Assembly: GCA_963848135.1 (NCBI GenBank)
Contig: CAWKCK010000012.1
Location: 94,061 to 135,101, forward strand
DNA from: an uncultured delta proteobacterium
GTDB taxonomy: Bacteria > Desulfobacterota > Desulfobacteria > Desulfobacterales > SG8-13
Direction of reading: 5' to 3'
Length of the DNA stretch: 41,041 nt
This document shows positions 16,329 through 34,055 of this stretch, one piece after another. The notes under the pieces are model-generated. The model made no database searches, was not told where the DNA came from, and worked only from the letters and a program-made list of their open reading frames with translations. Each line of letters opens with the position of its first letter. Position 1 is the stretch's first letter. Made by a program: the position numbers and the translations under genes.

Positions 16329-16925
16329 TTATGAGATGGATGAGGATGCCGAGAACCACATTTCGTAAAGACCTCGGAATAAAACAAAGACAAATACCGC
16401 TCCGAAGAGCCCTCCTCCCGGAATATGGAGCCAGAAAAAAGCAGGAGAAATAAAGCCTTTCAGCCACATTGATGCGATGTCGATCCAGATTCCCAAGAAT
16501 GGGAGGGCAATCAACCAGGCACGCATGTCTGCTCCCAAATTGAGAAATACGACCACCGCGCCCATCAGGATGAATATCGTGCTCATGCCGAAGAGATGAA
16601 TGTGGGTCCATTTCAGCGTCCAAACAAATTGTTCGCTTTTGTAGAAGGGTTCTTGAAGCTTTTTAGGGGAGCTTTCCGTCAGGTTCGAAAATAGGTCGCC
16701 CCGTGCATCGCTCTTAAGGGGGGACTGAGGAGGTTTAGAAACCTCGGGGTTCAACTCAGCTGAGGCGAATTTCGGTATGATGTCGTGAATGACGATTTGC
16801 CCCAGAGCCCCTAACATGCCAACAGCCATCGTAAGCATAATCGCTGTCACCAGCACCTTTGCCGGCAGTGGAAACTGCCTCAGCGTTGGCCAGTTGTGTA
16901 TTGCATCATTATTTTTCACTATCAT
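16329..16925 (-). CDS. Hypothetical membrane protein
   Basis: About four hydrophobic segments with a THIHLFG His motif; co-oriented with the TolC/MCO operon. Confidence 0.7.
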   Translation of the reverse strand: MIVKNNDAIHNWPTLRQFPLPAKVLVTAIMLTMAVGMLGALGQIVIHDIIPKFASAELNPEVSKPPQSPLKSDARGDLFSNLTESSPKKLQEPFYKSEQFVWTLKWTHIHLFGMSTIFILMGAVVVFLNLGADMRAWLIALPFLGIWIDIASMWLKGFISPAFFWLHIPGGGLFGAVFVFVLFRGLYEMWFSASSSIS

Positions 16926-17865: not shown

Positions 17866-19461
17866 TTATACCTTCACGTAATAATTACGCATCATCCCCA
17901 TATCTTCATGTTCCAAGTTGTGGCAATGGTACAAGAACATGCCGGGGTAATCATCAAAATCAACTAAGATTTTTATTCGCTCACCGGGCATCAGTAAAAC
18001 AGTATCTTTCCAGCCCTCATCCACATAGCCTTGATGCCTGACACCGCTACGTTCAATGACTCGAAACTGCTTACCGTGGAGGTGAATGGGATGCGGCATA
18101 TCCATCATGTTCATCATTCCACCGCCGGTATTATGGAATTCCCAAATCTCTTTTGAGCCTAATTGAACAATCTCGTCATCCGCCACACCTTCCATCTGAA
18201 ACACTCGACCATTGATCGACCATTGCATATGCCGCATCGTGAGATAAAATTGCCGAGGGTTGGAATAGTTAGCAGCTTCATCTATTCGGAGGGGTGTAAT
18301 TTCAGAAAGGTATTCCGGCAGCGACTGTTTTTTTACCACACGCTTTGAAACTTTAATTTTGCATACAGTAAAGCCAGCACCGTTTGGAAGGCTTTGATTC
18401 TGGCGCATTCCTCCGCCCATCATCATTCCGCGTCCCATCCGTCCACCACCCATTCCTCCAACGTCGAAAGGAAGGCTTATTAGGGATGTCTCAAAATCGA
18501 TCGGACTGTCACTAAAATCTGCCCAGATCTCCAACCTTTCCCCAGGGCTTAGAAACGTATACTTTCGGTACACAGGTTTTTCCAATAATCCTCCGTCCGT
18601 ACCGATGATGGTAAGAGGGCGGCCATCTTTCCACGCCAGTTTGTAGATTCGTGAATTAGAACCATTTAACAGGCGTAATCGATACGCACTGGTCGCTACC
18701 GGCAGGGTGAAATCAACCATCCCGTTAACCATTATCCAATCACCCAAAAACCCGGTCATCTGCTCCATCCTGTGACCTGAAGTGTATACGAGCTGATTGT
18801 CTGGATCAAACATGCGGTCTTGCAACACCAGGGGAATATCATATTCATCATCGGGCAAGCCCAAGGCCTGTTCTTCCTCATCAGAAACAAGAAAAAGGCC
18901 TGCCAGCCCGTTATAAACCTGTGGGCCTGTTCTACCGTGGGGATGGGGGTGGTACCAATATGTACCGGCTCTGTTATTGACCTCGAACTCGTATAAGTAA
19001 GATTGTCCTTGTGGAATCACGTAACGCGGATGACCGTCCATAATCGCGGGGACATGAAGGCCATGCCAATGCACAATAGATTCTTCCGGGATTGAGTTGA
19101 AGAAACGAATTCGTATTTTCTCTCCCTGATGAACTTTTATGATCGGGCCAAGATAGCTTCGCGGGAGTTCGATCACCCGGTTTTTATCGCCTTTATGCAC
19201 AATCGCATGGTACTGCCAAACCCGTGTGGGATCTCCTGGGAAAATAGTTACCTCACCAGGTCGCGCTGTGAGGGTAATATCAAGGTCAGGGTTAAATTCT
19301 GTTCCCGGATTTGTCTCTTGATTTTTCCCTGCAAGCGAGGGCTTTAATAGAGGCCAAGCCCCACCTGTTATCATACCCAGCGTTCCGAATCCGGCCAGTT
19401 TCAGAAACTGTCTTCTGTTATTCCTGTCTTCATTCCATAAAACCGTATTTCTCTTTTTCAT
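17866..19461 (-). CDS. Tat-exported three-domain multicopper oxidase (CueO-like, Met-rich insert)
   Basis: NRRQFLK Tat signal; HWHG, WYHPH, HPIHLHG, YHCHNLEHEDMGMM; insert GGMGGGRMGRGMMMGGGM. Confidence 0.93.
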   Translation of the reverse strand: MKKRNTVLWNEDRNNRRQFLKLAGFGTLGMITGGAWPLLKPSLAGKNQETNPGTEFNPDLDITLTARPGEVTIFPGDPTRVWQYHAIVHKGDKNRVIELPRSYLGPIIKVHQGEKIRIRFFNSIPEESIVHWHGLHVPAIMDGHPRYVIPQGQSYLYEFEVNNRAGTYWYHPHPHGRTGPQVYNGLAGLFLVSDEEEQALGLPDDEYDIPLVLQDRMFDPDNQLVYTSGHRMEQMTGFLGDWIMVNGMVDFTLPVATSAYRLRLLNGSNSRIYKLAWKDGRPLTIIGTDGGLLEKPVYRKYTFLSPGERLEIWADFSDSPIDFETSLISLPFDVGGMGGGRMGRGMMMGGGMRQNQSLPNGAGFTVCKIKVSKRVVKKQSLPEYLSEITPLRIDEAANYSNPRQFYLTMRHMQWSINGRVFQMEGVADDEIVQLGSKEIWEFHNTGGGMMNMMDMPHPIHLHGKQFRVIERSGVRHQGYVDEGWKDTVLLMPGERIKILVDFDDYPGMFLYHCHNLEHEDMGMMRNYYVKV

Positions 19462-19480
19462 TTTTAAATCCCTGCAAAGT

Positions 19481-19849
19481 TTATTGGAGTATGTCTTTTT
19501 TCATGGTTTCAAATTCATCCTGGGAGATTTCTCCCCTGGCATAGCGCTCTTTGAGAATATCAATCGCTTTAGGACCCACGCTTTCACCAGAATGCCCTTT
19601 ACTGCTCGTGTTCTGAATCAGCCATCGAATCAGCGACACGAGGCCGACAACAATCAGGCCCCAGAATATAATCATGAAAATCATACCAAACCATCCCATT
19701 CCCCACCCGTCCATCATCCAACGCCCCATGTGCCAGTCATTGTACCGGTCTGATTGGGCCAAAGTGGGATTTGCTAAAAATAAACTGCCTGGTATCAACA
19801 CGGATAAGGATCCCGCCAACACTTTTCGGAACCTGTATTTGTCTTTCAT
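19481..19849 (-). CDS. SHOCT domain membrane protein with Met/Gly/Trp-rich segment
   Basis: HMGRWMMDGWGMGW, a TM helix, and AIDILKERYARGEISQDEFE. Confidence 0.85.
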   Translation of the reverse strand: MKDKYRFRKVLAGSLSVLIPGSLFLANPTLAQSDRYNDWHMGRWMMDGWGMGWFGMIFMIIFWGLIVVGLVSLIRWLIQNTSSKGHSGESVGPKAIDILKERYARGEISQDEFETMKKDILQ

Positions 19850-19969
19850 TTTATACACCCTGTACAATATCGCCTAATGCCATAAATAAGCCGTAAATTG
19901 ACCTTTTCACAAGATCACAGAACTATTGTTATTGGGTTTACCTGGCCGTATAATATTTTTAAAATGAAT

Positions 19970-19989
19970 GGGGCGACTGTCGCCGCCCC
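19970..19989 (-). terminator. GC-rich hairpin after the zraP-like gene (terminator or mRNA stabiliser)
   Basis: GGGGCGGC-GACA-GTCGCCCC followed by ATTCATTTT on the minus strand. Confidence 0.45.
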
Positions 19990-20017
19990 TTTACAAGTCT
20001 TCACTGCGCTTTTAGAA

Positions 20018-20527
20018 TTACCACCTGCAGTAGTATCCGCCACTATTGGGACCATAGCCCATCATCGGGCCATTTCCCATCATTGGGCCATATCCTCCAT
20101 AGCCACGGTCATAATTGGGTGCTGATTTTCTGGCCTGAAGTTCATAGTCCAGCCCTTTCTGATCGAGGTCAGCTTGAAGTTTGGAAATTTCACCCTGCAG
20201 ACTCGATGCTTTCGCAGTGTCCGGATTTTCCTTGGCCAGCTCGCTTCTCAGGGCAAGCTCTTTTTCGTAAAGCTGTTGCCGGGTATTTTCAGTCGCTTTG
20301 AAGAATTCAGCACGTTGTTGATCCAGTTTGGCTATCTCTTCACTTGAAAGGTTGCCAGAGTATCCTTCTTGGCCGTACCCATATCCACCCATTTGATTCC
20401 AACCCGGCCCCATCATGGGCCCCATCATATGTCCGTATCCTCTACCCCAACCGGCAAATGCGAGGGCGGTCATGCCAAAGATCGCTAAAACCGTTAGTAT
20501 CATTATTCCTTTTACTTTCCTGTCCAT
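20018..20527 (-). CDS. ZraP/Spy/CpxP-family periplasmic metal-responsive protein
   Basis: Signal peptide, Gly/Met/Tyr-rich termini, LSSEE...RQQLYEKELAL..EL...PD helical core; RBS GGAGG. Confidence 0.85.
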   Translation of the reverse strand: MDRKVKGIMILTVLAIFGMTALAFAGWGRGYGHMMGPMMGPGWNQMGGYGYGQEGYSGNLSSEEIAKLDQQRAEFFKATENTRQQLYEKELALRSELAKENPDTAKASSLQGEISKLQADLDQKGLDYELQARKSAPNYDRGYGGYGPMMGNGPMMGYGPNSGGYYCRW

Positions 20528-20593
20528 TGTTACCTCCATAAGTGTTAGTTGATGTGTTATAAGGTGGTCACGTTACTTGGACGATCTTCACAA

Positions 20594-20830
20594 TCATGAT
20601 TTGTTGTCATCAGGATTGGAAGGGGTGGAATGAAATCCCTTATGCATGAATACATGCATCAGCGGGCACAACAGAATCAGCAGAAAGTATGCGGAACTGC
20701 CTATTATTCCTGTCCATGAAAGAAACAGCAAAAGAACTAGTGGCGCAGCACAACCGAGAAGCATGAGCAGGGCGTGATTCTGTTTGAGTGATTTCTGCGA
20801 GAATGATTCGATGAGCCGCTTCATATTCAT
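20594..20830 (-). CDS. DUF2933-like small membrane protein
   Basis: HALLMLLGCAAP...LLCPLMHVFMHKGFH motif. Confidence 0.75.
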   Translation of the reverse strand: MNMKRLIESFSQKSLKQNHALLMLLGCAAPLVLLLFLSWTGIIGSSAYFLLILLCPLMHVFMHKGFHSTPSNPDDNKS

Positions 20831-20888
20831 TTTCCGATACTTTGTGTTTATGAGAGAGTGCATTCACTCTTAAGGTTAGCCTCGTGTA

Positions 20889-21146
20889 TCAATGGCAGCT
20901 CGGCGTTTTGCCGCCGGTGGCTTTGTTCAGCCGGTCCAGGTATCTCTGCCAGACTCCTTTACGTTTCATCTTCCCAGTGGATACAAGGTACTTTTGCGGT
21001 TTGTTTTCAAAGGCCTTGCGGCACGATTCGGCACAGAAGAAATAGGTGTGGCCTTCAAAATCGACGGCCTTAACCTTCGTTTCTTGTTCAACAATCATAC
21101 CGCAGACCGGATCCAAATTTTCTATACGTGATCTGTAAAGATTCAT
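20889..21146 (-). CDS. YHS domain protein
   Basis: DPVCGM...YFFCAESCRKAF..KPQKY with a C-terminal PSCH; ATG 21146 follows GGAGG. Confidence 0.88.
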   Translation of the reverse strand: MNLYRSRIENLDPVCGMIVEQETKVKAVDFEGHTYFFCAESCRKAFENKPQKYLVSTGKMKRKGVWQRYLDRLNKATGGKTPSCH

Positions 21147-21282
21147 TTTTTCCTCCTGCTGGTTGATCTCTACACTGGAAATTGGACTTTGACTCATTTG
21201 TTTACCAATTTTAACTTTGGAGGGAAATTTTCCAACGTAGGTAATCTCCAACCTGTTCCATTATCCTTTACTATTATGTCAA

Positions 21283-21455
21283 AGCATAAAGCATGCCAAC
21301 ACTACCACATAGTGGTAATGATGCGTGCAAGTAACTGATTGATCAATAACAATTCAGATAGGAAGAGCTTGGTGGATGTTTGGGGGTTCAGCCGAGTGGA
21401 TAGTTTATACCCACATTTGTGGAAACCCTATACTTCTGCTGCGCACAAATTACAC
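21283..21455 (-). promoter_or_regulatory. Sigma-54 promoter with paired enhancer sites for the YHS-zraP-MCO operon
   Basis: Minus strand TTGGCAT-GCTTT-ATGCT at 21283-21299; palindromes GGATA-N5-TACCC (21398) and GCGCA-N5-TACAC (21441). Confidence 0.75.
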
Positions 21456-21707: not shown

Positions 21708-22586
21708 TCAACAACTCGGTGGATCAAGCATCCAAGGTGCTGGGCGGTATGTTTCCCTGCGCCAGCGCCAATTTAGATCGATGATCTCACCGGGCTTGTC
21801 GATCTGGTAGAGGGCTTCGAAGGCCCTTCCAAGAACGGCGGCCTGCTGCGGGATGTTGTGAGCTTCTCCTAATGGATGCCCAAACGGCCAATGTAAGAAG
21901 ATCGACCGCGGTGGTTTGATTTCTTCGGTGTATTTTCGCACGATAGATATACTGATGGTGGCGATACCGACGGATTCGATGACTCGTTGAATCAATCCAA
22001 CGGATTGATTGCAAATCCCTCAGGCCGGCGTCAATAGAACAACATCCACCTCGTCCGCTCTGAGTATAGACGCCACTTTGGGAGCGGTCTGGTTTATCAA
22101 CGTGTCGATGTGTTTACCATCAATATGGCCCATGAAGCTGATATGCCTTTCGGCCAAGGCACCGATGCAGCCCGCTGCTGACATCTCTTTGAGGCGTGTG
22201 ATGGGAAAAACGATATTGATGTCTTTATCGGCATCGCGGTGATCGTAGTAATCGTGTGTGATGGTGAAGTCGTTTTCTATACTGGCGGTATCAAGAATAC
22301 GGTAAGTAGGATCGCCATCGGAATCAGCCATATTGAATGCGGGTTGCTCACGGTGGTGCAATCCGGCAGTGGTTACGACAGCGATCTTGGATTCATTCAG
22401 CGGTTTGGTCACTTCTACCCATGGACTTTTGTAAAATGCCAGGGGCTTAAATGCCTCTATCAGCTTATTGGAGAGGTACGGCCAATAGGTCGTCAGGCGG
22501 GCAATCCCCTGATGAATAAGTCTTCTTATTGCTACAGGCGCTTCAAATCTGTTTATTATTCTCAATCGATACGACCTCTTAATCAT
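21708..22586 (-). CDS. PrdB/GrdB-like (glycine/proline reductase selenoprotein B family) UxxC selenoprotein (joins ORFs 22020-22586 and 21708-21995)
   Basis: IAVVTTAGLH, GDPTYR, HDYYD...DINIVFP, then VLLTPA-U-GICNQSVGLIQRVIE..GIAT in one frame (TGA at 22020-22022), and KPPRS...PFGHPLG. Confidence 0.9.
21990..22010 (-). promoter_or_regulatory. Bacterial SECIS-like hairpin
   Basis: Perfect 9-bp stem AAUCAAUCC-GUU-GGAUUGAUU starting 10 nt after the UGA. Confidence 0.7.
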
Positions 22587-22787: not shown

Positions 22788-23267
22788 TCAGTACATGAGG
22801 ATGAGCGCACCGGTGAAGGCCGCCAGGACGGACAACAGCCAAAAGAGGACCCTTGCGTTTTTTTGGACACCAGCATAACAGGCGCTATAACTTTCAATAT
22901 TGCTTAATATGGTAAACAATTCAGACGCTATTTCCCAAAAGGCCTGGACGGACACCACAAAAAAGGGCATCTTGAACAAGGCCATCGATCCTGCGCCCCA
23001 AGACACCAATAACAGTATACCTGCATATAACAGTGCCAGAGGAACAGTCTGCAGATGCCCTACCTCATGTTGGATGTTCAGGGAAACCGAGTTCTTCATT
23101 TTCAGTCCCCGCCTGAGAAGCCAGTTTACCGCGGCCGGATGCGGAACTAAAAAATTTCCGAAACCGGTCTTATGCATAAATTTAGATCGAAGGGTTACGG
23201 TTGCGTTTATCCCGTACCATGTCCGGAGCTGCAGAACCTGGGGGTATTGCCATACGTCTGCCGTCAT
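22788..23267 (-). CDS. Hypothetical membrane protein with HExxH motif
   Basis: QHEVGHLQ followed by TM helices and a WEIASE segment. The likely start is ATG 23267; the ORF is open from 23306. Confidence 0.65.
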   Translation of the reverse strand: MTADVWQYPQVLQLRTWYGINATVTLRSKFMHKTGFGNFLVPHPAAVNWLLRRGLKMKNSVSLNIQHEVGHLQTVPLALLYAGILLLVSWGAGSMALFKMPFFVVSVQAFWEIASELFTILSNIESYSACYAGVQKNARVLFWLLSVLAAFTGALILMY

Positions 23268-23362
23268 TTGGCCCTTTTCGTCTCTTTCGGAGACCATCCA
23301 ACCCACTAATGCCGATACACATGGAGTCGACGTAGCGGCGGCATGACACGATCGGTGTCATT

Positions 23363-23528: not shown

Positions 23529-24080
23529 TCAGACAATCAGCAGCTTGAAAGCGATGGCTATCAGGAGAAGACCCCCAAATATTTCCATCCGTTGTGTAAG
23601 CCTGCCGGAAAGTTTATTACCCAATTTCATGGCCAGCCAGGTCATTGCGGCTGCCGTGATGCCGATCCACACCGCCATCCAAAAAAAGCTTTGCCCCAGA
23701 ATACCGATTCCAAAACCGACTCCCAGGGCATCGATACTTGTGGCCAGGGAAAGCATCACCAAACTCATGCCTTTTGTGGGATCGGGGCATGATACCTTTT
23801 CTTCACCAGACAGCGTACCTTCTCGAACCATCCTGGCACCGATAATAAAAAGGAGGCCGAAAGCAATCCAGGTTCCCCATCTCTGAGCCCAGTCGATGAT
23901 ATAATGGGCGGCCATCCAACCAATGAGGGGCATCATGAACTGAAAGAGACCGAAATGAAACGACAATCGAAACACTTGCCGGGGTGCACCACAGCGCGTA
24001 CCGACGCCAAACCCGACGGCAAAAGCATCACAGCCGAGCGATACGGCTATCAATCCGATCTCGGTGACGTTTAAGCTCAA
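23529..24080 (-). CDS. mntP: MntP family manganese efflux pump
   Basis: SLGCDAFAV, FGLFQFMMP, IGARM, ATSIDAL, GGLLLIAI motifs. Confidence 0.9.
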   Translation of the reverse strand: MSLNVTEIGLIAVSLGCDAFAVGFGVGTRCGAPRQVFRLSFHFGLFQFMMPLIGWMAAHYIIDWAQRWGTWIAFGLLFIIGARMVREGTLSGEEKVSCPDPTKGMSLVMLSLATSIDALGVGFGIGILGQSFFWMAVWIGITAAAMTWLAMKLGNKLSGRLTQRMEIFGGLLLIAIAFKLLIV

Positions 24081-24107
24081 TGATTATCTTTCCGAATGCC
24101 TGTTTGC

Positions 24108-24875
24108 TCAGACATGAATGACAATGATGGTAATATTGTCCTTGCCGCCGTTTTCCAATGCCGTCTGTAGTAGTTCTTGGGCAGTTTGCTCCGGAGGGAG
24201 TTGGCGCTTGAGTATGTCTTCAATCGTATTGACTGAAACCAAACCATGAAGCCCGTCGGAGGACAATAGGAAACAGTCTCCATGCGCGATATTTAGTCTG
24301 TCGATTTCGATCTCTTCCAGGGGTTCCTGGGTACCCAAAGCTCGGGTGAGCATATTTCGCAGCGGGTGATAAACCGCCTCATCCGGGGACAATTCACCCT
24401 CCTCGATCATTTCCTGGACAAAAGTATTGTCGCTTGTCAGCTGATTTAACCGTCCGTTGCGGAACCGGTAAATTCGGCTGTCGCCCACATGGGCCAATAC
24501 GGCAAAATCGCCTGAGAAAACAATCGCCGATAACGTGGTCCCCATGTGTTCGCATTCCGGATCCTCGATGGCCTCTTGTTTTATTTGCCGGTCTATCGAA
24601 CGGACGAGTTCCTCAATCTGTCTCAAATGGTTTCTTGGAGGTGATCCGGAATGACCGCTGAAGTAAGTTTTCAAAAGATCACAGGCCAACCGACTGGCAC
24701 GATCACCACAGGAGTGTCCACCGATTCCATCGGCCACGGCAAACAACATTCCTCGCCCGTTATTGTGGATAGCGTTATTGTGGATAGCATACGCCACATA
24801 ATCATCTTCATTGCGTTTTCGTTGCAGCCCGATGTCGGAAAGCGCGTAATACCGCATCGTATCGATTGTCGTCAT
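24108..24875 (-). CDS. PP2C-family Ser/Thr phosphatase (Stp1/PrpC-like)
   Basis: SDIGLQRKRNED, VADGIGG, MGTT, HVGDSRIY, LTRALG, SSDGL, GGKDNIT. Confidence 0.95.
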   Translation of the reverse strand: MTTIDTMRYYALSDIGLQRKRNEDDYVAYAIHNNAIHNNGRGMLFAVADGIGGHSCGDRASRLACDLLKTYFSGHSGSPPRNHLRQIEELVRSIDRQIKQEAIEDPECEHMGTTLSAIVFSGDFAVLAHVGDSRIYRFRNGRLNQLTSDNTFVQEMIEEGELSPDEAVYHPLRNMLTRALGTQEPLEEIEIDRLNIAHGDCFLLSSDGLHGLVSVNTIEDILKRQLPPEQTAQELLQTALENGGKDNITIIVIHV

Positions 24876-24897
24876 TGACCCTGGCCTGTTTGAGTGT

Positions 24898-25236
24898 TTA
24901 CTGAAGCCGTTTCATGAATTGAATGCGGCCGTTTTGTTTGTCTACCAATAGTTCATCGATCAGGCTGCCGTCCGGTCGGACGACCCGGGCGACATAGTAC
25001 CTCCCCTTATTTTGCAATCCTTTGAGGCGGTAAGATTCAGTAATACGGCGGCTCGCTTCCCGGTCGATGATTATTCTGGCAGTACCGGTACCCATACCGT
25101 CGAGAATGTCCTGCAGGCGTTGCGAATCCTCCACGCTGTCATTTGTTTTGCCTTGGCCAGCAGTTTCTTCCACATCTGGCAGACGGTGACGGCCGGCTCG
25201 TTTGATCAGCTTTTCTATGGATTCTATCAGATTCAT
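24898..25236 (-). CDS. Hypothetical protein between kinase and phosphatase
   Basis: 112-aa ORF with tight operon spacing; the C-terminal YVARVV.PDGS..DELLVDKQNG resembles a PepSY-like beta motif. Confidence 0.65.
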   Translation of the reverse strand: MNLIESIEKLIKRAGRHRLPDVEETAGQGKTNDSVEDSQRLQDILDGMGTGTARIIIDREASRRITESYRLKGLQNKGRYYVARVVRPDGSLIDELLVDKQNGRIQFMKRLQ

Positions 25237-25257
25237 GTCTTCACCTAAATGTTACCG

Positions 25258-27174
25258 TTATTTCAATGGTAAGATTGTCCGGAAGCCGACATCCTCGAAT
25301 CCTTCCCAGGGCGACCGGCCAACCGGAGGTTCTTCCGCTATTGTGGAGGCCCAATCGATCACGCGGGCCCTGGGACCGGAAGCGGAACTTTTGTATTCTC
25401 CCGTCCACTCTTTCAGCTGCATACCCAAATCGATCAGCGGCATTGACACCACTGATTGAACACTATTTCCCGAATGCGTCAATGAACTCGAGTCAGGAGT
25501 ATTCGACTGTCCCATCATTTGTGAGTGTGCGTTTTGACTTGGAAGGGGTTCGTCCACCGCGGAGGATGAAAAATTAACCGGCATTCTTTCCCTGAGCCAG
25601 CCGGCCGCGGTGCGCCACTCAGCCGCAGTCGGCAGTCTTTTATCATAGTGACTGGCATAAGCATGGGCGCCATAAAAGGTGACACGCACCACTGGTTTCG
25701 GTGCATAGGCCGCCTCTCGCAAGTGAAATCGACCGTCTCTGTAAAGAATCTGCTCATAGGGCGCGGTCCCTGAACCCAGGTACACCCAGATTTGATCACC
25801 GTTGCGAACAACACCATCGGAAACATTTAATTGGTCTTTTAGTTCATTGAGAAATTCAAGAAAATGATGGTTGGTCACTTTTTCTCGGTCTATGTAAAAT
25901 GGGGCCGGTGACGGCTCAGCACTCATTTGAGTGGCCTCCGATTCGATAAGGATCATTTTACGGGCGTCTTTACCCCGGATGTCATTTTTCAGGGTATCAG
26001 GTCCAGATTGCGATTGTGATGTTACCGGCGAGACTTCTCGAATCGCCGCTTCATCATTCGAGCGGTTGAAAAATCCGGGATTGCCCAACAAATGCCATAG
26101 CGTCATAGCAATCAAGGCGATAAAGACAAAGCCGGCACCAAACCTTGTCCAGACGTGAATGTTGGTGCGCTGCGGAGGCATTTTTGCATCGGCTTGATTG
26201 TCGGTGAGATATTTGAAATTGTCTAAAACCGCCTTGATCGCCAGCGTGAGTTCTTCAACGGACTGATATCGTTTAACCGAATCTTCATGGGTGGCTTTCT
26301 GAACGATGGCATCGATTTTTTCTAAGAACGGATTTGCCGTTTCCTTGAGTTTGACCGACTTCAACGGTATTGTTTTCGACTCGATTTTGCCTTCCACCGC
26401 TTCGAAGAGAATCTTACCCAGAGAATATATATCTGCCGGGGGGCCGACTTTACGAAAGTCCATGAATTGCTCGGGTGCCATATAATTCATGCTCCCTTTC
26501 ACGTCCCACGAATTGGATATGGCCCGCATACGAACACTGCGGGCCAGGCCGAAATCGGCAATTTTGGGGATGTCGCCGTCCATGAGAACATTTTCCGGCT
26601 TCATATCCCGATGGACGATGCCTTTTTGATGAATCGCCGTTACGCCCTCCAGTACCGGAAGAAAATACGTTGTCAACCAGTCTCTCAGCAACTCGACTTC
26701 ATCGCCAAACCCGTCTTCGGACATGGTAAAGCGCAGGGTATTGCCGGGTATATACTCCATGGCGATATACTGCACCGGTATGACCTTATCCCTCTTGCGC
26801 GCTTGATAGGTACCGAAATCATAAATCTGGAGGATGTTCGCGTGCCGGACCTGGGCCATGGTTTGTACTTCCCGATGGAGCCGTTCGAGCATCGCCGCCT
26901 TTTCTTCGGGATTGTCCTCGAAACTCTCGAGAAGTTCTTCTGAGATGATTTTAATGGCCACGTCCCTGTTGAGGTTGAGCTGATGGGCACGGTAAACCTC
27001 ACCCATCCCACCCTTGCCGATGCGTTCGATCAGCACCCATTTTTCATCGAGGATGTCACCGGTTTTAAACAGCGGATGAGAATCCGGTTTTTCCATAGTA
27101 CCGTCCTCACTTCCCAAGCGATCTTTCAATCCAACTTCATCCATAATAATAACTTGTCCGCCGAGTGGGAACAT
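25258..27174 (-). CDS. Hanks-type Ser/Thr protein kinase with TM helix and C-terminal FGE-sulfatase (SUMF1)-like domain
   Basis: GKGGMGEV, VAIK, HRDMKPEN, DFGLA, YMAPE, DIYSLG; TM FGAGFVFIALIAMTLW; FYIDREKVTN, PVVRVTF..A.AYA, KRLPTAAEW, EW, VGFR. The start may be 27144 or 27096. Confidence 0.9.
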   Translation of the reverse strand: MFPLGGQVIIMDEVGLKDRLGSEDGTMEKPDSHPLFKTGDILDEKWVLIERIGKGGMGEVYRAHQLNLNRDVAIKIISEELLESFEDNPEEKAAMLERLHREVQTMAQVRHANILQIYDFGTYQARKRDKVIPVQYIAMEYIPGNTLRFTMSEDGFGDEVELLRDWLTTYFLPVLEGVTAIHQKGIVHRDMKPENVLMDGDIPKIADFGLARSVRMRAISNSWDVKGSMNYMAPEQFMDFRKVGPPADIYSLGKILFEAVEGKIESKTIPLKSVKLKETANPFLEKIDAIVQKATHEDSVKRYQSVEELTLAIKAVLDNFKYLTDNQADAKMPPQRTNIHVWTRFGAGFVFIALIAMTLWHLLGNPGFFNRSNDEAAIREVSPVTSQSQSGPDTLKNDIRGKDARKMILIESEATQMSAEPSPAPFYIDREKVTNHHFLEFLNELKDQLNVSDGVVRNGDQIWVYLGSGTAPYEQILYRDGRFHLREAAYAPKPVVRVTFYGAHAYASHYDKRLPTAAEWRTAAGWLRERMPVNFSSSAVDEPLPSQNAHSQMMGQSNTPDSSSLTHSGNSVQSVVSMPLIDLGMQLKEWTGEYKSSASGPRARVIDWASTIAEEPPVGRSPWEGFEDVGFRTILPLK

Positions 27175-27269
27175 GCGTTCTCATATTTTTCCAGTTATCG
27201 GCAGTGATTGTTGAAAAAAGGTCCAGCATATTGCTTTTATTGTTCTCGACAATGAATATCGCTCTTGCT

Positions 27270-27773
27270 CTATCCACAGCAAGCGGCATTCGGGGTTGTA
27301 TTGATGCCGGTGTTGCTCTTAACTCCAGCTGTTTTTGCACGCTCGATGACCCGTGTGATCTGGGGGACGAGCTTCGGGCCAAAGCTCGCTGACTTTGAGA
27401 TGGCCATGGTCATCATAAAACCAAGGGCGAGTCCAAACAGGCCCACCAAGATGGCAGCACCGGTTTCACCTATCTGCCACTCGTTGCCCACACTGGCGCC
27501 GACAAAGGCCCCGGCCATCAGCCACAAGACCGGGATGATGTAAAGAAAAACGGCGCCGGTCCAGAGAGCGGATTCCTTCAGATAGATCGAAACCACGTCC
27601 CCTTGATCGGCCCCAATGGGGTTTTTCACCATAGCGACCATTTTGGCACTGGTTAAACACGACCGGCATCCATGCGAGTGCTCGCACCCTCCGCAGGCGT
27701 TTCTGCGGTCGGTGACGACTTCCGCCATGCCATTGTCAAAAGTATGGAGAACCAATCCATTTCGTTCAGCCAT
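27270..27773 (-). CDS. RseC/MucC family membrane protein
   Basis: ACGGC....GC..C, NPIGA..GD.V, LYIIP and two TM helices; C-terminal CC. Confidence 0.85.
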   Translation of the reverse strand: MAERNGLVLHTFDNGMAEVVTDRRNACGGCEHSHGCRSCLTSAKMVAMVKNPIGADQGDVVSIYLKESALWTGAVFLYIIPVLWLMAGAFVGASVGNEWQIGETGAAILVGLFGLALGFMMTMAISKSASFGPKLVPQITRVIERAKTAGVKSNTGINTTPNAACCG

Positions 27774-27788
27774 TATATTCTCCTCCTC

Positions 27789-30236
27789 TTATGCGATCTT
27801 GGCTTTGTATAGACGCAGGCTGTTTGTGACCACCGAAATGCTGCTCACGGCCATGGCCAGGGCTGCGAGAATGGGGTGAAGTTGTCGCAGCATGATCGGC
27901 AGCGTCTCTATCGGCGCCAAAACACCGGCAGCCAAGGGAATCAGGATAATGTTATAGACAAAGGCCAGAAAAAGGTTCTGACGCACCGTGCGCATGGTTT
28001 TGCGACTGATGAGGATGGCCCGTGGAATGCCTGCCAGACTGCCGCTCGACAGAATCACGTCGGCGGTTTCGATGGCAACATCCGTACCTGTGCCGATGGC
28101 CATGCCCAAATCGGCCTGGGCCAGGGCTGGTGCATCATTGATACCGTCACCCACCATGCCGACCCGGGCGCCGGTCGCCTGAATTTTTTTGATTTGCTCC
28201 GACTTCTCCTCCGGCCTGACTTCGGCGTATATGTCGTCGATACCGACCTTGGCGCCAATGGTGTTGGCCGTATTGACGTTGTCTCCCGTGAGCATCGCCA
28301 CCTTGAGACCTTGTTTGTGAAGCATCTTAATGGCATCGGCCGATTCGGGTTTGAGCGTGTCGGCCACGGCGATGAGGCCGATCAAGCGATCATCCGCCTC
28401 GACGACCATAACCGTTTTGCCCTGCTGCTGGATCTCTTCGATCCGGTCCGAAACAGAATCCATTCCAGTTCCGGCGTCGTCGAACCACTTGGGTTTACCG
28501 ATCCGTATCCGCCGATTGTCGATGACGGCTTCGACCCCAAGTCCACCATGGGCCTTGAAATTCAGAGGCTCCCAAAGTTTGAGTGCTTTCGCCATGGCGT
28601 CCTTGACAATGGCTTTTCCCAGCGGGTGTTCGGAGCCCCTTTCCGCGGACGCCGCCAACTGCAATAACCGGTCTGAATCAACGGATTCGGTGGCCAATGA
28701 GATGATGCCGACAACCGCCGGTTTACCCTCGGTTATGGTGCCGGTTTTATCCAGGACGATGGCATCCAGCTTTGTTGCATTTTCCAGTGCCTCTCCCCTT
28801 TTAAACAGGATACCGTTCTCTGCACCCTTGCCGGTACCGGCCATAATTGCCGTGGGTGTCGCCAACCCCAGAGCGCAGGGGCAGGCGATCACAAGCACGG
28901 CCACCATCCGGATCATTGCCGGCACGAACTCACCGGTGACCAGCCACCACAAGCCGAATGTCACCAGGGCGATTCCGATCACTGTGGGGACGAACACCCC
29001 CGAAATTCGATCGGCCAAAGCTTGAATCGGTGCCTTACTCCCCTGGGCCTCCTGTACGAGTTTGATGATCTGCGCCAGGGCGGTCTCCTTGCCTACCCTC
29101 GTGGCCTCGAAACGCAGCATGCCTTCACCGTTGATGGTACCCCCCACAACGATATCGCCGGGCTGCTTGTCAACCGGCAATGGCTCTCCACTGAGCATCG
29201 ATTCATCAACGGCCGAGTTTCCCTGGAGAACAGTTCCGTCCACAGGTATCTTTTCACCGGGACGAACGATCACGATATGTCCCTTCTTCACAGCTGTCAG
29301 CGGGATTTCCTTTTCCACGTTGTCTTCAAGGACCGTGGCGGTTTTTGGCTGGAGTCCGATCAACTTGCGTATGGCACCGCCGGTTTTGCCCTTTGTCCGG
29401 GCCTCGAGCATTTTGCCCAGCTTTATCAGGGTGATTATGACTGCCGAGGTTTCGAAATAAACATGCGCGCCCAGACTTGGGAAAAGGAGCACACCGAGGG
29501 AGTAAAAGTATGCCACGGATGACCCGAGAGCGATAAGGACATCCATGTTGGCGCTGCCATTGCGCAGGCTCTTGTAACCGCCGGTGTAGTAATCCCAGCC
29601 GGTGTAAAATTGAACCGGGGTCGCCAAAAAGAAAAACATCCAATTGACCCAAGCCCCATGGATCCACGGGCCCGCAAGCCCGAAATCACGCGCCATGCTC
29701 AGCAAAAAGAGCGGGGTGGCAAAAAGGACACCGACGATAAACTTGCGCGTCTGATCTTTAATTTCTGCGTCACGGGCGGCCTGCTCGGCATCGGCAGCGT
29801 CGGGTGCATCTTCTGCTGCAATAGCGCCATATCCGGCCTTTTCGACGGCGAGTACGATGTCGTTGACATCTAACAGCCCCGGCAAGTAGTCGACTCTGGC
29901 TCTTTCAGTGGCAAAGTTGACCTCTGCTTTTATAACGCCCGGCAGCTTTCGGTTCAGCGCGCGTTCGATGTTAGCGGCGCAGCTGGCGCAGGTCATTCCG
30001 GTAATCGGAAGTTCTGCGTGAGCGATGGCCACCCCGTATCCAGCACCTTCGATACCGTCGACCAGGTTTTGGATATCCAATCGTTCAGTATCGAAGGATA
30101 TCACGGCCTGTTCCGCGGCAAAGTTCACAATTACTTCACCGATACCCGGTAATTTGCCGATCGAGCGCTCGATATTTTGAGCACAGCTGACGCAACTCAT
30201 ACCGGTTACCGGCATTGTTACAGATTTAGTCGACAT
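27789..30236 (-). CDS. copA: Cu(I)-translocating P1B-1 ATPase with two HMA domains
   Basis: GMSCVSC and [37 protein letters not shown], and TM YN and MAVSS Cu(I) ligands. Confidence 0.96.
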
Positions 30237-30308
30237 GACGATTTCCTTCCATAATGTTTACAGGTGCAGCTGTTATAAGCGACAGTTTACAGGGCGCAAT
30301 TACTGGTT

Positions 30309-30592
30309 GATTCAATGACCTCCGGTAAAGCCGGAGGAATGGATTGTGAACCGCTCAAAGCGATCATTGAAAACCATTCGTTCGAGCAACCAGCCGGTCA
30401 TTGAATGTAGTTTTTTAAAGGAATATGGTATCGACCTTACCGGTTGTAAGCGGTCCGCAGTTAGGCTGAATCTGCTCCGTGAACACCATATTTTACCTGT
30501 TTTTAAATATATAATAATCATCGTCTCCGGTATTTGTTAACTTCTGGAACTGTCAAACTTTGAGAGTATTCCCAGTAATACTGGGTGGTTAA
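30309..30592 (+). mobile_element. Non-autonomous IS200/IS605-like element
   Basis: Left hairpin ATGACCTCCGGTAAAGCCGGAGG...GTGAACCGCTCAAAGCG (homologous to 7184-7250) and right hairpin CCCAGTAATACTGGG followed by TGGTT; no transposase ORF between them. Confidence 0.5.
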
Positions 30593-30601
30593 CGATGATT
30601 A

Positions 30602-31004
30602 TTATGGTTGCACTTGCCAGGAAAAGATGCGCTCCGAATCCTTGCCGACACCTTTGATAATCAGGGTAACGGTTTCGGTGCCCGGCGCGAGAGCCGGAAA
30701 GGAAAGCGTGCCGCTGCGATGATGGCCACCGGGCGGCGATCCGTCCCAACCAGTCGGCGGAAAGTTGTTGCCCTTGTTGTCTTTGAGACTGCTGATAGCC
30801 GCCAGATCCTGATCGAGTTCAACCGAATGGGTGCTCAATCGAACTTCAAAGCGAGCTTCACTCCCCGCCTTCAGTTCAACGGGTGTGGCATCTATCCGGA
30901 CTCCGTTTTCATTGTTCGATTGACGGTCATAGGCGTGAACATGAATTGCAGCACTCGGCAGTTAAGGGATTCTCTAATTCACCTTTTAGGTATTCTGATT
31001 TCAT
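30602..31004 (-). pseudogene. Exported His-motif protein (THSV..GGHHRSG) with a disrupted N-terminus
   Basis: The frame of ORF 30602-30838 extends upstream as LPSAAIHVHA/YDRQSNNENGVRIDATPVEL...FEVRLSTHSV to an in-frame TAA at 30962-30964. The plausible ATG at 31004 is out of frame. Confidence 0.6.
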
Positions 31005-31047
31005 AAGTTGTCTCTTTATTGTGAAATGGGTTATTGTTAACTAAAGA

Positions 31048-31206
31048 AGCACAAATTATACCACAATGTGATATATAAATTTAACCGTTTGTAATAATTC
31101 GAAATTTATATGTTTTGGGGTAAGCTTGTAAGAGTAAGTGTTTGGAAGTCGGGTAAAAAATACCCACTCAGGGGACCTTGTTGGGAAAGGCGCGAAAAAA
31201 ATGCAC
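31048..31206 (-). promoter_or_regulatory. Sigma-54 promoter with paired enhancer sites for the copA operon
   Basis: Minus strand TGGTAT-AATTT-GTGCT at 31048-31063; palindromes GGGTA-N5-TACCC (31151) and GCGAA-N5-TGCAC (31192). Confidence 0.7.
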
Positions 31207-31238
31207 AGTCGTAAAGGGATGAGACGACGGGACTATAG

Positions 31239-31388
31239 CACGGACATTTCATGAAAATTTTTCGGCTTTTCTCTAGAATTCATAAGTTGCAAATTGTACT
31301 CTGACCAAAATACGTCCATTTCATGTCAGGTATCTAAAATTAAACTAATTTACTCATTGTGGCGAAAAGATTTCATGAAATATTCGGG
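31239..31388. mobile_element. MITE family B (150 bp)
   Basis: TIRs CACGGACATTTCATGAAA / TTTCATGAAATATTCGGG, with a 4-bp TSD ATAG on both sides. Confidence 0.75.
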
Positions 31389-31533
31389 ATAGCAGTGGTG
31401 AGGTACAGGAATAAACGGTGGATTCGATGCACGGCTGGAGGAAGATTATTTCTCGTCTTCAGTGATGATGTAAAGGAGAACGATATGAAAGATCATTATC
31501 CCGTTAGGAGGTCATTTTCCTGCTACAAGAAAG

Positions 31534-32874
31534 TCAATTCTGACTTTTAGGCGTTACATTGACGGTGGTCATCATACCCGCTTCCGCGTGAGATTGTATG
31601 TGGCAATGAGACATCCAAATGCCGGGTTCAGTCGGCACAAGGCCGATGACAACGGATTCCCGAGAACCCAGAAGGACGGTATCCCTCGTAAAATTCTCTG
31701 CCTCAGGTTTTCCATTGCGTTCCAAGACCCTGAAGAATGTTCCGTGGATGTGCATCGGATGCAAGCGCGAGCTGTTGTTGTTAAAAACGATTTTTTGTGG
31801 TTGCCCCTTCGGAATGTCGGCTGTATCGCTATTGGGCCACAGCAGACGATTCATCGCCCACCCGATACCGAATTGCCCCCCCCGGATGGCATCGAGATCC
31901 CATGTTTTGGATGGCGTGGCATTTGAAAAGACCTCTGCCGGCAAAAAATCTTCAGCGGTCGGTGGATCGAAAACCGGCGTCTGGACAGGTTGATCCTCTT
32001 TCACTGTTATCGAAGCCAACGGAAAATTGTTGCGCGTAAATTCATCTTCGACAACGTACCTTTGGCCCTGCGCATCGGTCGGTATGATGATGTCTAAATC
32101 GATTCGGTTGCCCGGGGCGAGATCGAAGCTGCCATATTTGAATATTCGCGTAACCGGCTTTCCGTCCACCGCGATGACATTGGCATCGATTCCTTTAAAG
32201 ACGGGCATCAGTACTCGTGCATTTGCACCATTTATGAGGCGAATGCGGATCCGTTCTCCTGGAGATACTGAAAACTCGGGTTGATAATTGCCATTGATGG
32301 TGACCACGTTGCCCCATCGGCCATCGTGCATCAGGTCGTGGCCGGTGTTGAAGTGCGGAAAAATATTGCCGTCTTTTTGAAGGACCCAGTCGTCGATGAG
32401 CCAGACAAAGTCTTGAGACCAGGGCAATTTTTTATTTGGTTCCACGATCAGCGCCCCTTTGAGGCCGCGCCCCAGCTGCTCACTGCCGTTCAGGTGGGGG
32501 TGGTACCAGTATATTCCGGCATCCCGAAGTTTCAAGCGATAGCTAAAGCTTTCTCCAGCCTTTACCGGGTCCTGGGTGACGCCCGGGACACCGTCCATCG
32601 CGTTGTCGATAATCAAACCGTGCCAATGGATGCTTGAGGATTCGTCCAGTTTGTTGATGAATTCGACCTCGATGGTTTGACCCTCCTTGCCCCGAATGAT
32701 GGGGCCGGGTATCGAACCGTTGTACGCCCAGACCGGGGTAGGCGTGTCGAAAAACGGAAACTGATGTGATGATAGTTCTGCCGTTAGCTTTAACTTTTGT
32801 GCACTGACTGCCGATACTGGCGCTGAAAAACCGATAACCATCAGCAACAGAATTATTTTAGCGATGATTTGCAT
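31534..32874 (-). CDS. Three-domain multicopper oxidase with Sec-pathway-type (non-Tat) signal peptide
   Basis: HWHG, WYHPH, HPMHIHG, HCHIQSHAEAGMM; the signal peptide has no twin arginine. Confidence 0.92.
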   Translation of the reverse strand: MQIIAKIILLLMVIGFSAPVSAVSAQKLKLTAELSSHQFPFFDTPTPVWAYNGSIPGPIIRGKEGQTIEVEFINKLDESSSIHWHGLIIDNAMDGVPGVTQDPVKAGESFSYRLKLRDAGIYWYHPHLNGSEQLGRGLKGALIVEPNKKLPWSQDFVWLIDDWVLQKDGNIFPHFNTGHDLMHDGRWGNVVTINGNYQPEFSVSPGERIRIRLINGANARVLMPVFKGIDANVIAVDGKPVTRIFKYGSFDLAPGNRIDLDIIIPTDAQGQRYVVEDEFTRNNFPLASITVKEDQPVQTPVFDPPTAEDFLPAEVFSNATPSKTWDLDAIRGGQFGIGWAMNRLLWPNSDTADIPKGQPQKIVFNNNSSRLHPMHIHGTFFRVLERNGKPEAENFTRDTVLLGSRESVVIGLVPTEPGIWMSHCHIQSHAEAGMMTTVNVTPKSQN

Positions 32875-33359: not shown

Positions 33360-34055
33360 CTAAAATCTCAGGGTGGGAATACCGAACAAAGGGTAAACAA
33401 GGTCTACATGACCGATGCCCAGCCCCAGGGTGTCATTGCTGCAGAATATTTGGGGCGCATCGAAGAAATCGCCGTAGCCGTATGGGGCGACATCGAAGTC
33501 GGCAAATGTCATGAACATCATCTGACGCGAATTCATCATGGCGGCGTAATGAGGGTGGGTGATGGACACGAGTTGAAACCCTTCCGGGCCGCAACCGGTG
33601 TCTTTCTGGGCTAACCGTTTACGGAATTTGGCAACCGTTAAATACTGAAACCGCTCCCCGTGTCTGAATTTCGAGAAGTAAAATCCTTTGGGCCTCGGGG
33701 GCGCAGCCGGACGAAGACGTAAATGTTCGCTATGGTCGAAATCGATATATTCGCACTGCCAGGTTTTTGGCTTTCTCCGTTTGACAGCAAAATCCCAGGC
33801 GCTTCGTCCGGACAACGCGGCATCAGAATGGCCGTGCCCGTCATCGCCAAAACCATAGGACAAAATGACGCCTGAAAATCCATCGCGACGGTCCGCTTGC
33901 GATATTTCCGGTTCGGGATCAATCGTTTCGAATTCAGCCTGATCGATACCCCAGTCCATCTTGTGGTTTGCCTTGTGCCATGCTTTAATTTGAGCATCGA
34001 AGGGCAGTATTTCTCTTTGCGGATTCTTGGCGGTTTTTCGGAAGAAGGATTTCAT
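33360..34055 (-). CDS. Hypothetical protein (231 aa)
   Basis: Long ORF with normal composition between two MITEs; no motif recognised. Confidence 0.65.
   Translation of the reverse strand: MKSFFRKTAKNPQREILPFDAQIKAWHKANHKMDWGIDQAEFETIDPEPEISQADRRDGFSGVILSYGFGDDGHGHSDAALSGRSAWDFAVKRRKPKTWQCEYIDFDHSEHLRLRPAAPPRPKGFYFSKFRHGERFQYLTVAKFRKRLAQKDTGCGPEGFQLVSITHPHYAAMMNSRQMMFMTFADFDVAPYGYGDFFDAPQIFCSNDTLGLGIGHVDLVYPLFGIPTLRF

Follow-up and report, generated by a model that had tools for sequence, protein, structure and literature searches.

A cysteine-free FGE-fold receptor kinase of the Hanks type and its recurrent association with copper gene islands in the Desulfobacterota

Bacterial copper homeostasis is currently explained by metal-sensing transcription factors (CueR, CsoR, CopY) and by His-Asp two-component systems (CusRS, CopRS). 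The subject here is a receptor Ser/Thr kinase of the Hanks type joined to a domain with the fold of formylglycine-generating enzymes (FGE), encoded within a copper gene cluster on a stretch of 41,041 nucleotides (the window) from an uncultured member of the Desulfobacterales (positions 94,061 to 135,101 of contig CAWKCK010000012.1). The described system closest to it in logic (PMC13713981) is the threonine-phosphorylation pathway of the H1 type VI secretion system (H1-T6SS) of Pseudomonas aeruginosa, in which TagR, a separate periplasmic non-enzyme of the FGE superfamily, acts on the Hanks kinase PpkA, with PppA as the cognate PP2C phosphatase. PpkA/PppA/TagR and the module described here both combine a membrane Hanks kinase, a PP2C and a non-enzymatic periplasmic sensor of the FGE superfamily, whereas TagR is a separate protein and the FGE fold is here fused to the kinase, and its genes stand among those for copper export and oxidation. 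Pfam scans of the window open reading frames (ORFs), and of 150 neighbouring ORFs from 22 loci of the kinase family, returned no FHA-domain substrate and no T6SS genes.

The PknB/Stk1-Stp1 PASTA pairs are also comparable, since they have the same layout of kinase, transmembrane (TM) segment and ectodomain and an adjacent Stp1-type PP2C; unlike in those pairs, there are no PASTA domains here, the ectodomain has an FGE fold and the surrounding genes are not cell-wall genes. The CusRS/CopRS and ZraPSR-like sigma-54 systems share the genomic niche of the kinase module and presumably its stimulus, but the module uses Ser/Thr phosphorylation rather than a His-Asp relay and encodes no DNA-binding output. 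Among open-access papers and bioRxiv preprints, none was found that connects Hanks kinases with the copper systems of bacteria or describes the kinase-FGE family, for which NCBIfam has no dedicated model (the best NCBIfam match of the kinase, a PASTA kinase model, reaches 207.5 bits where the cut-off is 450). The reading cautiously favoured here is that the receptor kinase with its non-catalytic FGE fold forms, together with a phosphatase, an accessory copper- or copper-damage-responsive signalling module of Desulfobacterota islands.

The cluster consists of seven genes arranged head to tail, here listed in their order of transcription, with the parts of the kinase and of the adjoining 112-aa protein (H112) given below their genes:

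31534-32874, minus strand: multicopper oxidase, 446 aa, the same-strand upstream neighbour (Pfam Cu-oxidase_3, Cu-oxidase_2, Cu-oxidase)
27789-30236, minus strand: CopA, P1B ATPase of the Cu(I) type, 815 aa (Pfam: two N-terminal HMA domains, E1-E2 ATPase)
27270-27773, minus strand: RseC/MucC-family membrane protein (Pfam PF04246, E 4.2e-27)
25258-27174, minus strand: receptor Hanks kinase with FGE fold, 638-aa ORF (Pfam Pkinase and FGE-sulfatase)
26257-27033, minus strand: kinase catalytic domain, residues 48-306 (Pfam Pkinase, 141.1 bits)
26086-26154, minus strand: single hydrophobic TM segment, residues 341-363 (read from the sequence)
25261-25992, minus strand: FGE-fold ectodomain, residues 395-638 (AlphaFold2 model, Foldseek, profile against the PDB)
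25417-25614, minus strand: low-complexity variable insert, residues 521-586 (mostly below 50 in predicted local distance difference test, pLDDT)
25510-25530, minus strand: AHSQMMG, residues 549-555, inside the insert (sequence)
24898-25236, minus strand: H112, 112-aa ORF without a Pfam or NCBIfam match
25075-25101, minus strand: DGM[GS]T[GA]TA[RK] motif of H112 (alignment of H112 homologues)
24108-24875, minus strand: PP2C phosphatase of the Stp1/IreP type (Pfam PP2C_2 and PP2C; NCBIfam NF033484)
23529-24080, minus strand: MntP-type manganese exporter (Pfam PF02659)

The intergenic gaps from copA through mntP are 15, 95, 21, 22 and 27 nt, and the coordinates together with the Pfam matches bear out the one-strand order with mostly short gaps that the first-pass annotation had given for copA through mntP. 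The ATPase scores 627.5 against the NCBIfam copper P-type ATPase model TIGR01511 (cut-off 397), and its translation contains MSCVSCA, MTCASCA and ACPCALG, the last of these holding the CPC motif.

Hanks kinases are recognised by a Gly-rich loop, the VAIK lysine and the HRD, DFG and APE catalytic motifs. All of these are present in the window protein (GKGGMGEV, VAIK, HRDMKPEN, DFG, APE), and K75, E102, H188-R189-D190, N195, D207-F208-G209 and P234-E235 are invariant across 29 aligned homologues, so that the kinase motifs are intact, as was noted earlier from the window sequence. The Pfam Pkinase match (PF00069, residues 48-306, E 5.7e-41) stands well above its cut-off of 31.7 bits. Translation probably starts at M27 (position 27096), because databases list the kinase as a protein of 612 aa (P0001). 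Since the kinase domain must face cytoplasmic ATP, the kinase is taken to be cytoplasmic and the FGE domain extracytoplasmic. The 638-aa ORF encodes no Cys, which is unusual at such a length; this could be a form of thiol avoidance in a copper-exposed protein.

True formylglycine-generating enzymes bind Cu(I) through two Cys, and Met/His clusters bind periplasmic Cu(I). The ectodomain has the same fold without the cysteines. Its Pfam FGE-sulfatase match (PF03781, residues 422-597, E 1.9e-16) reaches 60.9 bits against a cut-off of 23.3, and its AlphaFold2 model has a pLDDT of 83.2 and a predicted template-modelling score (pTM) of 0.80. Foldseek returned 42 matches at E <= 0.001; the matches listed were proteins of the FGE fold (FGE, EgtB, PvdO, CalU17 and CarF), and PorK followed just past that threshold. 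The top matches are FGEs, copper-bound forms included, with 6muj_D the best (E 2e-5, TM-scores 0.44/0.38), and a profile of 46 ectodomains searched against the PDB found FGE at E 2.6e-11. The motifs FYxDxxxVT, RVT..A.AYA, LPTxxEW and a C-terminal GFR are common to the ectodomain family and to FGEs. Compared with the aerobic FGEs (human SUMF1, the enzyme of Streptomyces coelicolor in PDB 2Q17 and 6MUJ, and that of Thermomonospora curvata), with which it has the fold and the flanking motifs in common, the ectodomain lacks the catalytic Cys pair that binds Cu(I), carries a disordered Met/His-bearing insert in place of the substrate-side region, and is linked through a TM segment to a kinase.

The ectodomain thus has an FGE fold yet is not an FGE enzyme, because the protein has no Cys at all and the family profile has none opposite C336/C341 of human FGE (the MCH..YCY stretch). 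An alternative in which the C-terminal domain is a working FGE, or a related copper oxidase, that modifies an exported protein of the island would account for the FGE-sulfatase match, for the copper-bound FGE among the structural matches and for the name 'bifunctional kinase/FGE family protein' that one source gives to the relative P0111. It is nonetheless highly improbable, given the loss of these cysteines, the replacement of the region from LPTxxEW to the WEW-like motif by the disordered insert (residues 521-586), and a structural similarity to the top FGE matches that is modest (TM-scores 0.38-0.47).

The distribution of this architecture was followed from the ectodomain outwards. A search with the ectodomain gave 111 protein clusters, nearly all of them kinase plus FGE fold and 560-690 aa long, and the named sources among them are nearly all Desulfobacterota. 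Within the class, the ectodomain was found in 50 of 401 genomes (32 of 151 genera), and in a sample of 401 genomes from across the phylum it was found in 24. The 54 and 24 matches, with two named records, gave 56 family loci in the same order and 24 in other orders, taken with flanks of at most about 10 kb in either direction. Copper or metal-efflux markers were copA (at least 30% identity over at least 400 aa), multicopper oxidase, YHS, SHOCT, Metal_resist and CusA. A pattern search with generic kinase motifs, which returned 80 loci of which only L025 and L026 were true members of the family, supplied the other 78 as controls. As relatives are not independent, the linkage is given as counts, without a statistical test:

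Kinase family, same order: marker in 42 of 56 loci
Kinase family, other orders of the phylum: marker in 11 of 24 loci
Other Hanks kinases of the same order (control): marker in 0 of 20 loci
Generic Hanks kinases (control): marker in 0 of 78 loci

The first-pass annotation, which had proposed a metal-responsive phospho-signalling circuit, named homologues lying mostly away from metal genes as an outcome that would speak against it, and the opposite was found. Marker-positive loci, when mapped to family labels, occur in 16 of the 18 GTDB-coded families of the order and in eight families outside it, and in a kinase tree of 77 rows the 52 copper-linked rows are spread through all major clades, including 15 of 15 in the clade of the window. 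The distance from the kinase to the nearest marker has a median of 1309 bp over the 53 marker-positive loci and is at most 2 kb in 34 of them; copA lies within 2 kb of the kinase in 14 of the 28 loci that carry it, on the same strand in 11 of these. Around the kinase, genes differ widely among loci in their order and orientation, which argues against one inherited arrangement. The linkage is strong, specific and old, and it is real with very little doubt; that the module acts in copper or metal stress is probable.

The genes found around the kinase are consistent in kind. Pfam was run on 150 of the 371 neighbouring ORFs, the other 221 being covered by all-against-all clustering, and identified P-type ATPases bearing HMA or YHS domains, multicopper oxidases, Metal_resist, YHS, SHOCT, RseC, DUF6488, CusA, CusB and OEP proteins. 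One carrier, L025, is the cultured Desulfosarcina alkanivorans PL12. The copA-rseC-kinase order seen in the window is repeated at L109, L118 and L119, loci of three other families, so that of the longer copA-rseC-kinase-H112-PP2C-mntP synteny proposed earlier this part holds, as does the recurrence of H112 and a phosphatase, and mntP drops out. In an RNA library of a relative, whose contigs are 90-98% alike, the module is covered, and both the junction of rseC with the kinase gene and that of the kinase gene with H112 are bridged; these contigs come from one estuary metatranscriptome run with 12% of the sampled words, as contigs only, such that uncovered parts carry no meaning and neither level nor strand nor a single transcript can be read from them.

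Among the partner genes, the phosphatase scores 231.6 against the NCBIfam Stp1/IreP model NF033484 (cut-off 230) and matches Pfam PP2C_2 at E 5.4e-23. A PP2C gene lies beside the kinase in 27 of the 56 family loci of the same order and in 10 of the 24 in other orders; the pairing is generic for Hanks kinases, because 11 of the 20 control kinases also have a PP2C. L025, L143, L144 and L152, in which no PP2C was found, have a calcineurin-like metallophosphatase beside the kinase in the usual place of the PP2C, and this substitution suggests that some phosphatase is needed there, of whichever kind. The phosphatase of the module is accordingly a PP2C in the window and a metallophosphatase in one clade, with the RseC-like protein and H112 as frequent companions.

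H112 occurs in 17 of the 56 family loci and adjoins the kinase in all of these except L111. Its homologues have the invariant motif DGM[GS]T[GA]TA[RK], followed by a PepSY-like helix and four-strand sheet. The model of H112 has a pLDDT of 69.8, and its alignment by VIA-align gave middling values, with the YpeB PepSY structure 5boi at Z 8.3 (root-mean-square deviation 2.3 over 69 aa), 4exr at Z 7.4 and YpmB (2gu3) at Z 7.0. No Pfam or NCBIfam model matched H112, the PepSY profile included, and the ESM Atlas placed it in unnamed Thermodesulfobacteriota clusters only. As H112 has no signal peptide and would be cytoplasmic, the T-x-T of its motif is a plausible phospho-acceptor and the protein a candidate substrate or adaptor of the kinase. 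A complex prediction of kinase residues 27-345 with H112 gave no answer (score 0.00) and is evidence neither for nor against this.

The RseC-like protein is present in 16 of the 56 family loci. Twelve island copies conserve an N-terminal CGGC..C..C and a C-terminal CC; the window copy falls short of the Escherichia coli RseC equivalog model (NF008115, 39.1 against a cut-off of 184) and matches only the broad Pfam family PF04246 (95.1 against 24.4). The 112-aa protein and the RseC-like protein, both put forward in the first-pass annotation as possible substrates, therefore do recur beside the kinase. MntP, which had been placed in the same set, was rejected as a member of the module, since mntP neighbours the kinase in the genus alone and was seen in none of the 80 family loci beyond it.

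The ligand, substrate and output of the module can be proposed as follows. The FGE scaffold with its flexible Met/His-rich loop would report periplasmic Cu(I), or envelope damage caused by copper, and the signal would pass through the single TM helix to activate the kinase. The kinase would then phosphorylate cytoplasmic targets, for which H112 with its invariant T-x-T motif is the best candidate, and the phosphatase would reset the system. The output may tune copper export or oxidation, alongside transcription control of the sigma-54/ZraSR-like type. A stronger version of this proposal, in which the protein would represent a third class of copper sensor, a receptor Ser/Thr kinase reading periplasmic Cu(I) by a Met/His loop on a Cys-less FGE scaffold and acting post-translationally on copper export via H112 and the RseC-like protein, is rather doubtful; were it true, it would allow a faster response than transcription control can give.

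Evidence on the loop comes from the inserts of the family. When a cluster is defined as at least three Met/His within seven residues, and the expectation is obtained by shuffling each insert, 28 of 46 members have a Met/His cluster in the insert against 9.2 expected, and only seven of the 46 have one in the rest of the ectodomain, which is the longer part. The Met content is 4.8% in the inserts and 2.0% elsewhere in the ectodomain, and the repeated GMM units in the inserts of L151 and L025 resemble classical Met motifs. In CueO, Met-rich disordered or flexible segments recruit Cu+ (PMC11494321). Direct binding of Cu(I) by the ectodomain may occur, although on present evidence it is somewhat less likely than its absence.

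Several observations weigh against the reading of the kinase as a copper-responsive module, and the first of these concern the insert itself. The Met/His cluster is part of a disordered stretch, 18 of the 46 members lack it, and the cluster in the window protein is weak, consisting of one His and two Met. The lack of Cys and the presence of AHSQMMG that had been noted for this domain are thus both confirmed, and the conservation of a His/Met insert, suggested as a check at the same time, holds for 28 members and fails for the remainder, the window protein being itself a poor example. These features would suit an island module whose ectodomain does not bind copper and instead binds a protein or peptide ligand, with the kinase reporting envelope damage rather than metal. 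The ligand in that case might be an envelope protein that is damaged or carries the wrong metal, or a further island protein such as the multicopper oxidase, RseC or the ZraP-like Metal_resist protein. The invariant ectodomain residues lie in the folded core, outside the insert; members lacking the cluster are still copper-linked (for example L132 and L134), and a small clade (L140, L146 and L154) has two Cys in the insert instead of the cluster. ZraP-like and sigma-54 envelope-stress elements occur in the same islands, and the FGE fold serves elsewhere as a peptide-binding scaffold, a loop of TagR contacting PpkA (PMC13713981). The partner of such a sensor is, however, hypothetical only, and the enrichment and clustering of Met in the insert, well above the shuffled expectation, would be needless for a pure protein sensor. 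A protein ligand in place of copper is considered unlikely, while deserving attention.

A second set of contrary observations concerns how readily the module is lost. Of the 15 further genomes in the genus, only G006, G003, G005 and G011 hold full-length orthologues or identifiable remnants, with G001 carrying a 34% relative that likewise has SHOCT and multicopper oxidase genes as neighbours. G003 has lost the kinase core (residues 121-302), H112 and PP2C residues 1-82, and its copA, rseC and mntP are full length and 95-97% identical. In G005 the kinase is fragmented, and of the PP2C just the 46 C-terminal residues (210-255) are left; rseC and mntP are full length there, and the sole copA-like gene in the stretch is 44% identical and about 8 kb away. 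The module is thus dispensable, having been deleted or having decayed in both of these genomes. The genome of the window also has a second copper island (G000 C7:106955-117602) without an FGE-kinase; this island contains copA, apparently in three frame pieces, two Metal_resist genes, YHS, an rseC-like gene and a multicopper oxidase gene. Across the family, 27 of the 80 loci have no marker, many of these lying on short contigs and six having the full 20-kb flank, and no marker was found in a subclade of five rows from other orders, although three of its loci have flanks of 14-20 kb. Neither an FHA-domain protein nor any other recognisable kinase target was found by Pfam among the 150 neighbouring ORFs.

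A possible explanation for this pattern is that the kinase, phosphatase and H112 are passengers that ride on mobile metal-resistance islands and regulate growth, envelope synthesis or defence. The decay of the module in two congeners in which copper genes remain (copA at full length in G003) and the loci without a marker would follow naturally, and the kinase tree departs from taxonomy, with two or three copies in some genomes, as expected for horizontally moved DNA. A passenger would not, however, be expected to keep its linkage through many rearrangements in at least 24 family-level groups, nor to be so often the immediate same-strand neighbour of copA, a multicopper oxidase gene or rseC, and no such linkage is seen for the remaining Hanks kinases of these genomes and this order (0 of 20). 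This explanation is regarded as improbable. If the module were nevertheless a passenger only, it would still be a clean comparative-genomics marker for copper islands.

The third contrary observation is that classical regulators are present in the same islands. An orthologous pair of a histidine kinase and a sigma-54 response regulator occurs in at least 11 of the 56 family loci (including L025, L110, L125, L131, L136, L137, L143, L144 and L151), the former a PAS histidine kinase (30-91% identity to the L025 protein) and the latter an NtrC-type protein with receiver, sigma-54-activator and helix-turn-helix parts (55-97% identity to its L025 counterpart). Exact matches to TGGCA[CT]N5TTGC[AT] are found at 51 sites in the 808,235 bp of family loci, where about 1.5 would be expected at equal base frequencies; these lie mostly upstream of Metal_resist (9), YHS/ATPase (6) and SHOCT (5) genes, and just one lies upstream of a kinase gene. 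Such regulators could explain copper control without the kinase. In the window and in the 20 kb upstream of it no ZraSR-like pair of histidine kinase and regulator was found, and the best orthologue of the island response regulator in the genome is on another contig (C5:161857-163194, 62% identity). The ZraP-like Metal_resist genes and the regulator pair occupy islands together with the kinase, and the window has one near-consensus sigma-54 site of its own, in front of the neighbouring copper operon:

17866-21251, minus strand: neighbouring copper operon of YHS, Metal_resist (ZraP-like), SHOCT and multicopper oxidase genes (Pfam)
21283-21298, minus strand: near-consensus sigma-54 promoter TGGCATGCTTTATGCT, located 32 nt upstream of that operon's YHS gene

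Sites of the type of TGGCATGCTTTATGCT also precede Metal_resist, YHS/ATPase and SHOCT genes at the family loci. The markers recurring near the family's kinase genes are orthologues of the genes of this operon, and its Metal_resist protein (PF13801, 20018-20539, 55.9 against a cut-off of 29.2) is the ZraP-like protein of the island. Because the regulator pair and the 51 sigma-54 sites share the islands with the kinase, the latter is an added layer of control and not the sole one. The earlier suggestion of a candidate metal-responsive kinase circuit, which would be unusual among copper systems, is sustained as to the linkage of the kinase to the islands, but the islands are not free of classical regulators.

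If the favoured reading of an accessory copper- or copper-damage-responsive module is right, a Ser/Thr kinase-phosphatase module in the copper islands of these family-level groups would constitute an extra and so far unsought layer of signalling, would give a first functional context to the widespread and uncharacterised architecture of kinase plus FGE-sulfatase domain, and would exemplify the reuse of a copper enzyme fold as a sensor.

The region upstream of copA had been described as a sigma-54 promoter followed by a gene for an exported protein with His motifs, and neither description could be upheld. Two features lie there:

31048-31063, minus strand: supposed sigma-54 promoter TGGTATAATTTGTGCT, matching 7 of 11 consensus positions
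30602-31004, minus strand: deletion remnant, in which the 5' end of a gene for an HMA and membrane protein is fused out of frame to a His-motif gene (sequence; comparison with L024)

The sequence TGGTATAATTTGTGCT is the best sigma-54 match within 30237-31533, with 7 of the 11 specified positions; it is also a perfect extended -10 box (TGnTATAAT) and is unchanged in the congener G006. It thus reads as ambiguous, being at once a weak -24/-12 match and an extended -10 box. The exact pattern TGGCACN5TTGCW has no match anywhere in the window, and a scan of the window that allows three mismatches is uninformative, with 308 matches against 332 expected. Among 13 regions upstream of copA orthologues, the pattern TGG[CT]A[CT]N5T[TG]GC[AT] occurs in four (L109, L124, L125 and L127) and is absent from the window and the eight others.

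The near-identical congener G006 (locus L024, 15417-16720) has at this site an intact gene for a 279-aa protein with an HMA domain and four TM segments (an HMA/CopZ-like match in the NCBIfam scan) and an intact gene for a 138-aa His-motif protein with a signal peptide. The window is about 900 bp shorter than G006 there, just upstream of copA, and retains the first 20 codons of the 279-aa gene running out of frame into the middle of the 138-aa gene, of which the 3' two thirds are left; this His-motif part has no start and no signal peptide. The supposed exported protein is accordingly a deletion remnant. Apparent frameshifts were seen at L024 in the genes for the PP2C (after residue 228), the multicopper oxidase, the YHS protein, a GrdB-like protein and a 172-aa protein (orf172), which may be assembly errors rather than decay.

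The cluster is itself embedded in a larger copper island in which Pfam identifies two further multicopper oxidases, an outer-membrane efflux protein, DUF6488, SHOCT, Metal_resist and YHS proteins, and the window ends where the contig ends. Three proteins without a family assignment are encoded on the minus strand of the window (33360-34055, 231 aa; 16329-16925, 198 aa; 22788-23306, 172 aa) and recur in related copper islands. The 231-aa protein is present in 4 of the 56 family loci and adjoins the kinase in L105, L106, L127 and L128, and the 198-aa protein is present in 5 of the 56. A GrdB/PrdB-like protein is also encoded on the minus strand at 21708-22586, with an in-frame TGA at codon 189 (TPA-U-GICNQ) and a second TGA at its end, and is probably a selenoprotein that translation table 11 splits into two ORFs.

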